A stretch of 64,000 nucleotides of DNA from a virus (lineage: Duplodnaviria; Caudoviricetes), in IMG/VR virus record IMGVR_UViG_3300027752_000013, positions 2,850 to 66,849 of that record. One strand, given 5' to 3'. Each line of letters begins with the position of its first letter. Positions within the stretch are counted from its first letter, which is position 1. Position numbers and translations under genes: made by a program. This document shows, in pieces, positions 14,780 through 23,052 of this stretch. The notes under the pieces were generated by a model, which worked only from the letters and a program-made list of their open reading frames with translations, did not search any database and was not told where the DNA came from.

Positions 14780-14837
14780 GCTACTATCTTAAGTAACCTG
14801 TCTTTGTGATTTTGTTTCATAAAATTGTTTTTAAAGG

Positions 14838-14911
14838 TGGACCCTATAGGACTTGAACCTATGACCTAATCATTATGAGTGATTTGCTCTAACCAACTGA
14901 GCTAAGAGTCC
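14838..14911 (-). tRNA. tRNA with CAT anticodon, probably tRNA-Ile2 (lysidine) rather than Met
   Basis: GGACTCTTAGCTCAGTTGGTTAGAGC-AAATCA-CTCATAA-TGATT...GGTTCAAGTCC...GGGTCCA; G1:C72, C4:G69, no initiator features. Confidence 0.88.
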
Positions 14912-14916
14912 TGGAG

Positions 14917-14990
14917 TGATCCCACTAGGATTTGAACCTAGAACCTACACCTTAGAAGGGTGTTGCTCTATCCAGTTGAGCTATAGGACC
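14917..14990 (-). tRNA. tRNA-Arg(TCT)
   Basis: GGTCCTATAGCTCAACTGGATAGAGC-A-ACACC-CTTCTAA-GGTGT...GGTTCAAATCC...GGGATCA cloverleaf. Confidence 0.92.
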
Positions 14991-18972: not shown

Positions 18973-19197
18973 TTATATAATATCTCCTAAGTGAGGATCA
19001 TTATAGTTATTTAATCCATTTGATGAATGTCCCTCAAGGGCATCCTGATATTTATCTAAGCTCATTGCCCATTGAGCATCAACTTTGTTTATGAAGTAAC
19101 CTGACTCACGACTATAAGGCATACCATTCTCTGTACGACCTATGTAATAACCAGCTGCTGACTTGAGTATTTGTAACTCTGAAATTTTGCTTGACAT
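18973..19197 (-). CDS. Small hypothetical phage protein
   Basis: LKSAAGYYIG...PYSRESGYF motif typical of a small early phage protein family. Confidence 0.7.
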   Translation of the reverse strand: MSSKISELQILKSAAGYYIGRTENGMPYSRESGYFINKVDAQWAMSLDKYQDALEGHSSNGLNNYNDPHLGDII

Positions 19198-19226
19198 AAT
19201 ATTTAGTATTTAAGGTGAATAAAAAT

Positions 19227-19426
19227 AAAGAGCCTGGTTACCTCTTAACGACCGTTTACCCGGTTGACGGTTGACTGTTACATGTTCCACAGACAAGTCA
19301 AATATACAATTTCCGGTTGTCAAACCTTACAGCATTATTGCCTAACGTATACAAGGATAAGCTGACTAGCCACTCCTCTAGATGTACATAGTGACATCCC
19401 ACACTCCCGCTAGCCTCACGGGTTTT
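19227..19426 (-). ncRNA. Candidate structured ncRNA
   Basis: About 200-nt intergenic stretch, about 46% GC by hand count, with multiple stems. Confidence 0.4.
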
Positions 19427-19429
19427 ATC

Positions 19430-19630
19430 TTAAATACGAGTATAGTAATCTCTTCCTACTATAGTTGCAGGTAACCATCCAAATATAACTGACATACCTA
19501 AAGTGGCACCATGCTTAAAGCATTCTTTAAATGTCCAAGTATCTTCTAGATACCATGTAATTGTGTTGAATAAGAGTACTGTGGTAATAAACACACATAT
19601 ACTCAGTAGCATTGTTTTAGTATTTCTCAT
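19430..19630 (-). CDS. Small membrane protein
   Basis: Two hydrophobic segments in 66 aa. Confidence 0.6.
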   Translation of the reverse strand: MRNTKTMLLSICVFITTVLLFNTITWYLEDTWTFKECFKHGATLGMSVIFGWLPATIVGRDYYTRI

Positions 19631-19648
19631 AACGATTTAGTAATTAAA

Positions 19649-19861
19649 TTAAAGTCTATATAATGGTTCTCCCATATCCATATCATTTATCATCTCTTCT
19701 TGGAAGCTACGATCAATGTTGGTCATCAGTATTTGTTGTTTTTGGCTGTAATATTTATATACCTCCATAAACTCTTCTACAGTCATATCTCCTGCCTGTT
19801 GGCAGATAGCATCAAGTTGTAGTTTTACTCTGTGATGCATGTTAAATAGGTGATTTTGCAT
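19649..19861 (-). CDS. Small hypothetical protein
   Basis: 70-aa ORF with the shared ACTAAA leader. Confidence 0.55.
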   Translation of the reverse strand: MQNHLFNMHHRVKLQLDAICQQAGDMTVEEFMEVYKYYSQKQQILMTNIDRSFQEEMINDMDMGEPLYRL

Positions 19862-20058
19862 AATGATTTAGTATTAAGGGTTTAGTAATTAATTTTAGTT
19901 ATAAACTAACTAAGCTGTAACTAATGCTACAGCTTGTTAGTAATTGTCATTGATGAAATGTTCTGATGCATTCAGTCATACCACTAATTGTATCTGATAC
20001 AAGAAGTGTCCAAAGAGAGAGTTTAATGTCTACATACTCCAAGACTGGCGTCAGTTTA

Positions 20059-20286
20059 TTACCAAGGAACTAAATGATCAGAGTTATTCTCTCTTTGCAT
20101 TCTTCCTTGATATTGTAATTTTTCTAACTTATATGCATCATTAGCTTCATCAAAGTTTTTGTATTCAATCAATGAACAGTACTTATTCATCATATTAGAT
20201 TCATCTGATGTTGTTTGTTGTGAGACAAGGTTAACACCATTGTCTATATATAAGAAGCCTTTACGGCTAAAAGCAAATATTTTCAT
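20059..20286 (-). CDS. Small hypothetical early protein
   Basis: 75-aa ORF with the shared ACTAAA leader. Confidence 0.55.
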   Translation of the reverse strand: MKIFAFSRKGFLYIDNGVNLVSQQTTSDESNMMNKYCSLIEYKNFDEANDAYKLEKLQYQGRMQRENNSDHLVPW

Positions 20287-20315
20287 GATAGTTTAGTATT
20301 AGTGATTAATTGCAA

Positions 20316-20610
20316 TATTGCGGGTACTATGTCTATTATCCTATAGAGGAAGAGACAAAGACTACCCTTGTAGTATTGTTGTGCGTAATTGTTACTCTTG
20401 TAGTAACGTTAGCTATATTTATATTATTAGTACTAGTGATAGTTACAGGTGTGTTCAAAGGTGCTTTTATGTGGTTATAAGAGGTCATCTTTAGTGTGAC
20501 ACGCACAAATAAAATAATTTACCCACAATAAATAAGTTATTTAAACTGTTTTATAACTATAGTCTAACATTAATAAGAATTGCTAAGCAATGTTAGTTTT
20601 TTCTGAGTAA
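20316..20610 (-). ncRNA. Candidate structured ncRNA or long 5' leader
   Basis: Nested long-range stems 20316-26/20520-30 and 20379-86/20501-08 plus local hairpins; no ORF. Confidence 0.4.
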
Positions 20611-20618
20611 CTTACTGT

Positions 20619-20650
20619 AGTTAGGGAGCAGACGTGCATGGAAATGCACG
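20619..20650. promoter_or_regulatory. Repeat copy 1: AGTTAGGGAGCAGA + CGTGCAT-GGAA-ATGCACG hairpin
   Basis: Seen directly; matches the copy at 21245. Confidence 0.6.
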
Positions 20651-20676
20651 CCTACAGCCTAATGTTACAGTTACGT

Positions 20677-21159
20677 CTAGAATGGAGACGCTTCAGCTTC
20701 TACAGGTTCAGCTTTAAGAGCTTGTAAACTCTCTACAGCTTGACCCTTAGAGTTAGCTTCACGTATCTGAGCACCATTATCATGCTTAAGTAATTCACTT
20801 ACAGCATTGACATCAGCCGTAAAGAATGTAGTTCTATAGATTGGCAAGCCCTTTATAGAGCAAGCTACACCTGTATCACCAGCATACTTAATATCCACAG
20901 CAGGGTTATTAGTATTAAACGGTTCAAGTGATTCTTTTACCACAATCTTACCAGTCATTGGGAAAGATGCTTCCATTGCTTTAATGGTAGGCATTTCTCC
21001 TTGAATGATAGTACTTAATGTTAGGTCTTTAGCCCAGCCATTTACTACAGAAATTCCTTTTTGTTCTGCTACAATGTAGCCGTATAAAGGGTTCTTAGAA
21101 GTTCTTACTGTTTCTCCTGTCTTAGACAGTCTAATTGTTACTTGATTTAATTTTACCAT
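20677..21159 (-). CDS. First gene of the left arm; paralog of 15869..16450
   Basis: Clear block similarity to 15869..16450; ATG 21159 aligns with the paralog start; ends EAEASPF. Confidence 0.75.
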   Translation of the reverse strand: MVKLNQVTIRLSKTGETVRTSKNPLYGYIVAEQKGISVVNGWAKDLTLSTIIQGEMPTIKAMEASFPMTGKIVVKESLEPFNTNNPAVDIKYAGDTGVACSIKGLPIYRTTFFTADVNAVSELLKHDNGAQIREANSKGQAVESLQALKAEPVEAEASPF

Positions 21160-21244
21160 GATATTGATATAATAGTTTTGATTAAGAATGCCGTAATACA
21201 TTCTCTGAAAGATTTATAGTTGCATAATTACGTATGCATTATTT

Positions 21245-21277
21245 AATTGGGGAGCAGAAGGCATTGGAAAATGCCTT
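21245..21277. promoter_or_regulatory. Repeat copy 2: AATTGGGGAGCAGA + AGGCATT-GGAA-AATGCCT hairpin
   Basis: Seen directly; same spacing as copy 1 with a different stem sequence. Confidence 0.6.
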
Positions 21278-21288
21278 ATATAGTTAGT

Positions 21289-21414
21289 GTGTGCTGAGAT
21301 ACATATCTACTGATGTATACATTCAAATCAATGATGTACAGATATTCAGTAGATATTTACTGTGACACAGTAGCACTACACTACTCCGTGTGCAGAGATA
21401 CAGATGTGTACATT
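21289..21414. repeat. Imperfect direct repeats GTGTGCWGAGATACA...GATGTRTACATT with short palindromes
   Basis: Copies at 21289-21323 and 21388-21414; TACTGTG-A-CACAGTA at 21358-21372. Confidence 0.55.
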
Positions 21415-21503
21415 TTTAATTTTTAAGTACACGTATTTGTATTTCTACAGTATTGTATTAGTAGTACACCATATTGATAGGGGGTACCACCGCTACGTAA
21501 TTT

Positions 21504-21517
21504 AGTTGGGGAGCAGA
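21504..21517. repeat. Repeat copy 3: AGTTGGGGAGCAGA without the GGAA hairpin
   Basis: Seen directly. Confidence 0.55.
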
Positions 21518-21677
21518 TCAGTAATACCTCTTGAGCATGCAAAACACACAACTTTTGGGAGGGGCATGAGGACAATTTAACAGTAGGCGGGGACATGTTC
21601 TTACTTAAAAATTTTTATAGGATTTAGAAATTTAGTATATTGTTCTTATAGAAGGATTACATACTAAATAAAATACT

Positions 21678-22001
21678 ATGGCAAACTGGAATGATAACAA
21701 TGAGGATAATGGAGGTGGTTTAAATGAAGTACAACAAATGCAAATGGATGCAATTATACTTGAGACTGCATACAACAATGCCTGGATGTTGCTTACTGGT
21801 GAAATCACATTTGATGAATTAATGGCAAGTCAATTTAGTGAGGGAAGAGAATTAGTAATGGCTTATGATCCAGACACGGGACCAAAGTTAGAAGAGTTAG
21901 AAAATATGATAGCACATTTCGTAGAAGAGGAAGACTATGAGAAGTGTGCACAGCTGAGGGATGTAATGAATAAATCATACCCTGAAACATTTGAAGCATA
22001 A
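21678..22001 (+). CDS. Acidic protein with C-terminal UVR (UvrB/UvrC) helical-hairpin motif
   Basis: VEEEDYEKCAQLRD. Confidence 0.7.
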   Translation: MANWNDNNEDNGGGLNEVQQMQMDAIILETAYNNAWMLLTGEITFDELMASQFSEGRELVMAYDPDTGPKLEELENMIAHFVEEEDYEKCAQLRDVMNKSYPETFEA

Positions 22002-22006
22002 GAATT

Positions 22007-22132
22007 ATGGCAACCAAAAAGAAAATGTCCTGCTGGAAAGGATACAAAGCAGTAGGTAAGAAGAAATCTCCAAGCGGTAAGAAAACAGCTAGTGGTAGAA
22101 CTAAGATGGTAAACAACTGTAAAAAAAGGTAA
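22007..22132 (+). CDS. Small basic CWKGY-motif protein (41 aa, not in ORF track)
   Basis: MATKKKMSCWKGYKAVGKKKSPSGKKTASGRTKMVNNCKKR; TAATG coupling. Confidence 0.7.
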   Translation: MATKKKMSCWKGYKAVGKKKSPSGKKTASGRTKMVNNCKKR

Positions 22133-22416
22133 TGGCAAAAGATAGCAGATTAGCAAGAGCAGGTGTGGCAGGGTTTAATAAACCTAAGCGTACTCCAAGT
22201 CACCCTAAGAAGTCACATGTAGTTGTAGCTAAGGTAGGAGAGAAGGTTAAGACTATTCGTTTTGGAGAACAAGGCGCTAGTACAGCAGGTAAACCAAAAG
22301 CAGGTGAGTCAGCTAAAATGAAAGCAAAGCGTAAGTCTTTTAAAGCTAGACACGGAAAGAATATAAAAAAAGGAAAGATGTCTGCAGCATACTGGGCAGA
22401 TAAAGTTAAATGGTAG
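22132..22416 (+). CDS. Small basic phage protein
   Basis: KTIRFG...RKSFKARH...SAAYWADKVKW, a motif common in aquatic phages. Confidence 0.75.
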   Translation: MAKDSRLARAGVAGFNKPKRTPSHPKKSHVVVAKVGEKVKTIRFGEQGASTAGKPKAGESAKMKAKRKSFKARHGKNIKKGKMSAAYWADKVKW

Positions 22417-22419
22417 ATT

Positions 22420-22680
22420 ATGACAGCAGCACAATTAAGAGAATTAGGATTTACTAAAATGGGTCATCATGAAGATGATGATTGGCCAGAGGGATATTAT
22501 TACTTTAGTATTGAGTTTGGAGATATGCTATTTCATACGGGAGGTGATGATGAAGCTGAAGAAGATGGGGGATGGTATATTCAAGATCCGTCAAACACAA
22601 TTAAAATATGGCAATACTCGGAAGCCAAAATGTTATTTGACGTATTAAGACGTAATACGGTTTCTAAAATAAGTATCTAA
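22420..22680 (+). CDS. Hypothetical protein
   Basis: 86-aa ORF starting LRELGF. Confidence 0.6.
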   Translation: MTAAQLRELGFTKMGHHEDDDWPEGYYYFSIEFGDMLFHTGGDDEAEEDGGWYIQDPSNTIKIWQYSEAKMLFDVLRRNTVSKISI

Positions 22681-22706
22681 ACTTTTTTTATTTAAACTAT
22701 TTTTGT

Positions 22707-22714
22707 TACCTTTG
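22707..22714 (+). promoter_or_regulatory. Bacteroidota sigma-A -7 element
   Basis: TTACCTTTG about 27 nt upstream of ATG 22741. Confidence 0.5.
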
Positions 22715-22740
22715 TTTTTATTAACTTTAAAAAACATAAG

Positions 22741-23052
22741 ATGACAGATTTTAAAACCAATGAAAATCTTCAAGACAAAGATCCAAAAATGTCTAAAAAA
22801 GAAATGGCAGAACGTAGAGAAGAAATTACTGCATTCTACAAAGACAACATTCCACATTTAGAAGTACAAGCAGATTATGAAACTCTTTTAGCTGCAATTG
22901 AAAAAGCTAGAGCAGAGCGTATGCAAGCACAAATGTATATGGCACAGCAATATGCTGCACAGAAAGGTGAGGGAGCTCCTGATCCTGAATCTCCAGAAGG
23001 AAAGGCATTTCAAGATGCAATGGCTAAAGCAATGACAAATGAAACAGCTTAA
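22741..23052 (+). CDS. Hypothetical coiled-coil protein
   Basis: 103-aa helical ORF. Confidence 0.65.
   Translation: MTDFKTNENLQDKDPKMSKKEMAERREEITAFYKDNIPHLEVQADYETLLAAIEKARAERMQAQMYMAQQYAAQKGEGAPDPESPEGKAFQDAMAKAMTNETA

Follow-up and report, generated by a model that had tools for sequence, protein, structure and literature searches.

Gene setting

The window, by which we mean the whole 64,000-nt stretch of DNA analysed here, comes from an uncultured marine crAss-like phage and carries two divergent gene arms. The leftward arm encodes a primase, a DnaB-like helicase, a second helicase and an exonuclease, and the rightward arm holds small genes, an endolysin-like gene and genes for a terminase, a portal, a tail fibre and a 2169-aa protein. 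The TerL of the window is ~25% identical to those of crAss-like phages in GenBank. Three copies of a short sequence box lie at the head of the leftward arm, where an earlier reading of the letters by themselves (the sequence-only reading) had put them. Two adjacent tRNA genes, for tRNA-Met and tRNA-Arg (anticodon TCT), are also found in the leftward arm (14836-14990, minus strand). The features of the region are as follows (positions of the window).

20610..20632, plus strand: Box 1 (core 20624-20632), an extended motif whose 3' end is GGGAGCAGA; invariant in relatives
20633..20650, plus strand: hairpin 1, a 7-bp stem CGTGCAT/ATGCACG with a GGAA loop, abutting Box 1 on the right; other stems occupy the same place in relatives
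20680..21159, minus strand: first leftward protein gene (~160 aa), its ORF open to 21201; in-frame indels in relatives
20624..21464, no strand assigned: stretch covered by metatranscriptome contigs of four studies, from Box 1 to short of Box 3
21236..21258, plus strand: Box 2 (core 21250-21258), 91 nt to the right of 21159, where the first leftward protein gene probably starts
21259..21276, plus strand: hairpin 2 (8 bp over 21258-21277), stem (A)AGGCATT/AATGCCT(T) with a GGAA loop
21277..21470, minus strand: putative non-coding, structured leader in the interval from Box 3 to Box 2, with five predicted helices and RNA contig cover
21495..21517, plus strand: Box 3 (core 21509-21517), without a hairpin; the copy kept in all relatives
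21518..21610, no strand assigned: conserved block right of Box 3 without consensus RNA structure, in the place held by the hairpins at boxes 1 and 2
21614..21641, plus strand: pair of sigma-70-like hexamers, TTTATA-16-TATATT, preceding the first gene of the rightward arm and conserved across 26 aligned relatives

The first ATG of the first leftward ORF (21201) is probably not its true start according to the alignment of homologues, which sets the start at 21159. A family search gave no match for the encoded protein (~160 aa). Its AF2 model has a pLDDT of 78.8; the top rows of a Foldseek search with this protein are PriB and SSB (E 0.03-0.2, TM 0.2-0.3), VIA-align gave Z scores of at most 4.7, and in the ESM Atlas Phage_SSB is found at rank 29 with a score of 0.86. 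We take an OB fold of the SSB/PriB kind as a lead only; if true, an SSB-like first early protein next to hairpin promoters would echo coliphage N4. Used as a query, the protein retrieved two loci, of which the 42%-identical one (L037) has another gene context and carries no box. Further left (19424-20279), gene content varies even among close relatives, and BLAST alignments break there.

The box motif and its copies

The sequence-only reading reported box copies beginning at 20619, 21245 and 21504, and all three hold up. The exact string GGGAGCAGA has three matches in the 64-kb window, all on the plus strand (starts 20624, 21250 and 21509), where 0.17 are expected; none of 100 shuffles contained three matches, and the complete contig (66,849 nt) has zero exact copies beyond those three. 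The longer strings around these matches are AGTTAGGGAGCAGA (20619-20632), AATTGGGGAGCAGA (21245-21258) and AGTTGGGGAGCAGA (21504-21517). Searching the window for the box followed by N7 and GGAA gave two matches (0.00 expected). The core given by the earlier reading thus stands but its extent does not: about 14 nt of additional similarity among the copies lies to the left of the limit it drew, so that the conserved unit is a box of ~23 nt, RCA-N5-TAGYT-N-GGGAGCAG-A. The motif is asymmetric, and the spacings between boxes are 259 and 626 nt.

We looked for a second promoter element and found no common sequence downstream of the three boxes; a start located downstream, beyond the boxes, would be without any shared second element. 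The Bacteroidota-type -7 box is TAnnTTTG; a candidate of this type within the motif, on the minus strand, was inspected by eye and rejected, as its spacing is off by one and inconsistent. Just left of Box 1, at 20564-20603 on the plus strand, an 8-bp A+T-rich hairpin (CTAACATT/AATGTTAG) is followed by TTTTTT; its stem is kept in relatives, and it looks like a terminator of rightward transcription.

Conservation among related loci

Relatives were collected by a TerL search of IMG/VR, and the best 80 of at least 592 related loci were taken, giving 81 sequences together with the window. In these 81 sequences the motif TAGYTnGGGAGCAG (at most two mismatches) occurs 65 times on the TerL strand versus three times on the opposite strand; the opposite-strand matches listed among the 80 loci are two, both with two mismatches and both inside TerL. 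No ORF of at least 100 aa contains any of these 65 copies (best 80 of at least 592 loci, plus the window).

The sequence-only reading had proposed that relatives be searched for the motif. Among the best 80 of at least 592 loci, 28 have at least 6.3 kb upstream of TerL, and the motif is present there in 27 of them (three copies in 10 loci, two in 13 and one in four); the single locus without it barely reaches the region. Four relatives with an estimated completeness of 100% (G001-G004) have exactly three copies each, on one strand and at one locus. The region from 20.3 to 22.0 kb is 76-77% identical to four of five aligned relatives, and in this five-relative alignment the box blocks do not vary, in contrast to the neighbouring protein gene, which differs visibly. 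The signal formed by the boxes is shared across the family, keeps to one strand, lies in non-coding DNA and is restricted to the head of the leftward arm with its replication genes.

The placement of the copies relative to genes is also regular. The rightmost, Box 3-type copy is the universal one, and in most loci it is separated by 168-171 nt from the first ATG of the rightward arm, to its right. In the hairpin-less clade the first leftward gene encodes 109-110 aa, and the rightmost box precedes its ATG by 67-76 nt. Box 2 is 83-92 nt upstream of the ATG of the leftward gene in relatives (153-156 aa). By these distances every box has a leftward unit to its left, and Box 3 alone also faces the rightward arm. 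The 170 nt from Box 3 to the rightward ATG are conserved in sequence but have no consensus RNA fold (-1 kcal/mol, 26 sequences), which suggests a role at the DNA level. With a sigma-70-like promoter of their own and no consensus fold in this stretch, the rightward genes would not need the boxes, and the stretch does not resemble a leader of theirs. Cumulative GC skew turns in the divergent region; because the turn coincides with the switch of gene strand, it is a weak indication of an origin.

Hairpins beside boxes 1 and 2

The sequence-only reading described perfect 7-bp stems with GGAA loops at copies 1 and 2, and we recovered both: the contig has 13 perfect 7-bp stems with 4-nt loops, and only the two beside the boxes have the loop GGAA. 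At Box 3, DNA folding of either strand gave nothing better than shuffles. Among the best 80 of at least 592 loci, hairpins at boxes 1 and 2 are restricted to one clade, and Box 3 and the whole sister clade are without them; counted over unique box sites in these loci and the window, 16 of 52 have a hairpin and 36 have none. There are 14 distinct hairpin 22-mers, in all of which the loop is 4 nt long and is either GGAA or GAAA.

Covariation was evaluated on rows with at least six of seven pairs. The pair counts are bimodal, with 2-4 pairs in unrelated chance loci, 6-7 in the family and none between; hairpin 1 of the window, which has one extra pair, stands outside the count and is itself 7/7 paired. 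For the 13 distinct in-register hairpins 92.3% of cells are paired versus 32-47% with slid partners, five of the seven stem pairs show a compensatory change, and the stem covariation score is 0.663 versus 0.207 (0 of 500 shuffles). The suggestion that structure rather than sequence is conserved is therefore borne out in relatives, where differing stems occupy the same place. The loop-closing pair is T-A in 13 of 13 hairpins, so that wherever the hairpin is present the plus strand (the template strand for leftward transcription) has a fixed apex, T-GRAA-A. One variant stem is held by a T.G wobble on the plus strand, for which the equivalent on the minus strand is C.A. Together, the GRAA loops, the T-A closing pair and this one wobble place strand-specific features on the plus strand. 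The loops of hairpins 1 and 2 agree in 26 of 28 three-box loci (19 GAAA/GAAA, seven GGAA/GGAA and two mixed), a number that includes duplicate contigs and shared ancestry and from which we draw no inference.

An outer extension of the stem around Box 1 (CTGTAG/CTACAG) was discarded, as copy 1 alone has it. Rfam covariance models run over 19000-23000 with E values up to 10 gave matches at chance level only, far under the gathering scores, and a tRNA/tmRNA search gave none at the box site. No T-run follows the hairpins on either strand, and a scan for intrinsic terminators was empty at these sites.

RNA contigs and the putative leader

Six metatranscriptome runs hold 34-46% of sampled words of 20300-21900, and four runs from four studies were compared. 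The contigs are strandless, RNA libraries may contain DNA, and contig depths were left out of the ranking of parts. An 835-nt contig (X17) in its entirety covers 20624-21458. Another (X15) matches 20669-21461 with 14 unlike letters on its left and three on its right (~20655-21464), an X18 contig covers 20714-21410, and X16 contigs cover 20669-21433 in three pieces as well as 20483-20658. The ends of the two deepest contigs are at most 6 nt apart, 45-51 nt left of the G-run of Box 3, which is a weak hint; as they stop this far short, a start inside Box 3 would need sequence that was not assembled. The other edge of the X17 contig falls exactly at G20624, the first base of the Box 1 core. In the four runs contig cover is nil over 21546-21679 and there is little left of Box 1 to ~20480; we do not take this as absence. 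In the gap that separates hairpin 1 from the first gene's stop codon (20658-20669), ~10 letters are replaced by ~30 others in the X15 and X16 strains.

The interval from Box 3 to Box 2 was aligned for seven members of the clade. Its consensus energy is -10.4 kcal/mol in the minus sense, with five local helices, versus -6.9 kcal/mol in the plus sense, where just one of those hairpins recurs. In the minus-sense model 90% of cells are paired versus 18-51% with slid partners, and eight pairs have a compensatory change (0 of 500 shuffles). The helices, as predicted on the minus strand, include 30 G.U cells there versus seven A.C cells (G.U on the plus strand); since the structure was predicted on the minus strand, this count leans towards that strand. 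Both the predicted fold and the G.U count favour leftward transcription of the leader.

Parts of this region recur elsewhere in the RNA contigs. The core of a leader hairpin (21308-21355) is the only part shared with RNA contigs of a more distant relative (a 753-nt contig of X17 and an 1180-nt contig of X18), and the 1180-nt contig links this core to the block at 20317-20479, skipping the first gene. That block belongs to a non-coding stretch left of Box 1 (20315-20480) which is kept nearly letter for letter in relatives that otherwise differ. It has RNA contig cover (20317-20479 in X18, 20296-20371 in X17 and up to 20373 in X15) and no Rfam match, and is possibly a second early non-coding RNA.

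RNA polymerase of the lineage

The window contig is 58% complete and ends ahead of any RNAP gene. The sequence-only reading called for a virion RNAP in the rest of the genome, and one of virion type was found in the lineage: the relative G001 (115.8 kb, estimated complete), which is 76-87% identical to the window over shared stretches, encodes a 3326-aa protein with GADFDIDKVY, that is, the crAss RNAP motif DFDID. Residues 1900-2700 of this protein match RNAP genes of crAssphage, IAS virus and others (E 1e-13 to 1e-14). The DFDID protein and its RNAP matches indicate that the lineage carries a crAss-type polymerase. The 2169-aa ORF of the window has no DxDxD motif; it matches 'virion structural protein' families and giant Cellulophaga and Flavobacterium phage proteins. 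A PDB sequence search with the 2169-aa and 3326-aa proteins gave zero matches, and the PHROGs search with the 3326-aa protein gave nothing. The T7-like RNAP domain (PF00940) had no match in G000 or G001, a search in which the control genomes were likewise silent. In G001 (L038-L043) a train of giant ORFs lies on one strand (2171, 1319, 848, 997, 1094 and at least 1261 aa) and continues across contig ends with ORFs of 3326 aa (the DFDID protein) and 1923 aa.

The boxes as candidate early promoters

A leftward early promoter is what best fits a motif of ~23 nt that is found on one strand, three times per genome, in non-coding DNA ahead of leftward units and in a lineage with an injected-type RNAP. 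From this pattern we infer promoter function, direction, enzyme and hairpin role, and we lean, somewhat beyond an even judgement, towards regarding the boxes as early promoters, specific to the phage, that direct transcription leftward; the virion RNAP would probably read them, and the hairpin would be an accessory. The plus strand, with RCA-N5-TAGYT-N-GGGAGCAG-A, would be the template. Box 3 would drive the structured non-coding leader, Box 2 the first protein gene (~160 aa) and Box 1 whatever lies further left, and the enzyme would most likely be the injected crAss-type virion RNA polymerase. Relative to this transcription the GRAA-loop hairpins lie immediately upstream of boxes 1 and 2 and would be an accessory of one clade; they may fold on the template strand of the DNA and aid opening or recognition much as in N4, and the box would work without them. 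Given a minus-sense leader RNA and hairpin features on the plus strand, the hairpins would act as template-strand DNA in the manner of N4, for which the evidence (loop identity and one wobble) is thin. Three copies per ~115-kb genome would by themselves be insufficient for the whole replication arm (tens of kb), barring very long transcripts or further signals.

The sequence-only reading had likewise seen promoters or entry sites of a virion RNAP here. Strand, placement, presence in relatives and the RNAP of the lineage agree with it, but the hairpin as the defining part has to be given up: Box 3, the most conserved copy, and every box of the sister clade have no hairpin, so that an N4-style, hairpin-dependent promoter does not suit all copies, and the hairpin is better viewed as accessory to the signal than as the signal.

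Other explanations were considered. The boxes could be bound by a phage DNA-binding protein, either a regulator of early/late transcription or a replication initiator, in or beside an origin at the point of divergence. We regard this as improbable. It would be consistent with a divergent region that has three direct copies, all on the same strand, and a turn of the skew, with looser TAG-N2-GGGG look-alikes (read from the sequence) close to Box 3, at ~21477 and ~21587, and with the block right of Box 3 that is conserved as sequence without RNA structure. But copies 259 and 626 nt apart with an intervening gene are unlike iteron arrays, the asymmetric motif has a leftward unit after each copy, and the skew turns just where the genes switch strand.

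A signal for an RNA end or for processing seems rather more doubtful still; here the hairpin would be a terminator or a protective 3' stem of a leftward RNA and the box its end or cut site. Box 3 has no hairpin and nothing upstream to terminate, the sister clade has boxes without hairpins, and one contig reads through hairpin 2. A minus-sense RNA would have UUCC or UUUC loops and, in place of the wobble, a C.A mismatch, and the T-run and terminator hit are missing, as noted above. These outweigh, in our view, the edge of the X17 contig, which coincides with the far edge of Box 1, 9 nt past hairpin 1, and the position of hairpin 1 just past the stop codon of the first gene.

The least likely explanation, to which we give little credence, is that transcription starts rightward at the first G of GGGAGCAGA as +1, with a T7-type arrangement (an upstream box, then GGGAG), to produce a plus-sense RNA that would be antisense to the first leftward gene and carry a GNRA-capped hairpin at its 5' end: the X17 edge at G20624 fits this equally well, the loops are GNRA and the sole wobble is T.G on the plus strand, and a conserved motif of ~23 nt ending in GGGAG is like the promoter layout of T7-type single-subunit RNAPs in the available part of PMC4496689, but the implied direction would have the left-hand boxes make antisense RNA over conserved leftward genes in every relative, the T7-like domain is unmatched (with the control silent too), the rightward arm comes with a conserved promoter of its own and without a consensus fold between Box 3 and its ATG, and for the leader (Box 3 to Box 2) the minus-sense fold is the better one. 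The related alternative of the sequence-only reading, a plus-strand RNA with GNRA-capped hairpins, is weakened by the same observations.

Comparison with known systems

For the favoured reading, early promoters of leftward transcription, coliphage N4 offers the closest parallel. According to the portion of PMC4496689 available to us, the N4 early promoters P1-P3 are read by the injected virion RNAP gp50, which is T7-like; they start transcription at a fixed distance downstream of the hairpin and need supercoiling (gyrase) and SSB. As described in that same portion (PMC4496689), the likeness includes three copies at the head of the early region (here within 900 nt), a short inverted repeat on the template strand, with a stem of 5-7 bp and ahead of the start region, and a purine-rich loop of the sheared G:A-pair kind, with a variable lower stem and a fixed apex. 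A virion-carried enzyme would be common to both, presumed here from the crAss-type RNAP homology. The two differ in enzyme, which here would be of the crAss two-barrel type with DFDID and in N4 is T7-like, and in that the loop here has 4 nt (GRAA) whereas in N4 it has 3 nt with the central purine at -11 (PMC4496689, the part available). Every N4 promoter covered by that text has a hairpin, but here one copy in three and the sister clade have none, and the linear box carries the signal.

Promoters of related enzyme classes were compared too, as far as the accessible text of their reports goes. The virion RNAP of P23-45 uses an AT-rich promoter motif (PMC10770324), and the non-virion RNAP of AR9 has template-strand promoters. 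The boxes resemble these in being a strongly conserved, linear, lineage-specific motif beside the start sites of the first genes, for an enzyme of a related class. The sequence is unrelated, however, and those motifs were defined by mapped 5' ends and ChIP while ours is defined by sequence.

In the available part of the report on phi14:2, a Cellulophaga crAss-like phage, the virion RNAP, an enzyme with a preference for single-stranded DNA, is responsible for transcription of the early replication arm (10.1101/2020.03.07.982082). Virion packaging and early-gene transcription by a crAss-type RNAP are known from phi14:2 only. The same text further describes extended non-coding DNA at the start of the early arm from which abundant RNA is made in the early direction, a behaviour that the leader here may share, and states that the authors detected no common motif upstream of the early transcripts (10.1101/2020.03.07.982082). 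When we searched the initial 5 kb of phi14:2 for repeats, no box-plus-hairpin element appeared.

The lambda nut site consists of boxA and a boxB hairpin and acts in RNA of the same sense as the genes. A conserved box, a fixed distance to the hairpin, a GNRA-like loop and a variable stem are likenesses to it, but here the GNRA sense is opposite to that of the genes, and Box 3 has no hairpin.

Significance

The crAss-like phages are among the most abundant phages known, and the structure of their injected RNA polymerase has been solved. In the literature that could be searched we found no promoter for a crAss-type injected RNAP, and the word 'promoter' is absent from a 2023 review of the order; the boxes are a candidate for one. 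The RNA contig cover and the comparison of leader folds between strands are new here. We would go further only tentatively, and think it rather unlikely as a whole, that the boxes are the first defined promoter of a crAss-type injected two-barrel RNAP to which one clade has added a template-strand T-GRAA-A hairpin, an N4 principle reached convergently by an unrelated polymerase that prefers single-stranded DNA.

A sharp, short box together with its natural variants (with or without a hairpin, and with several stems) provides ready templates for in vitro transcription and for structures of the initiation complex, and the box would let early units be annotated in hundreds of uncultured marine relatives.
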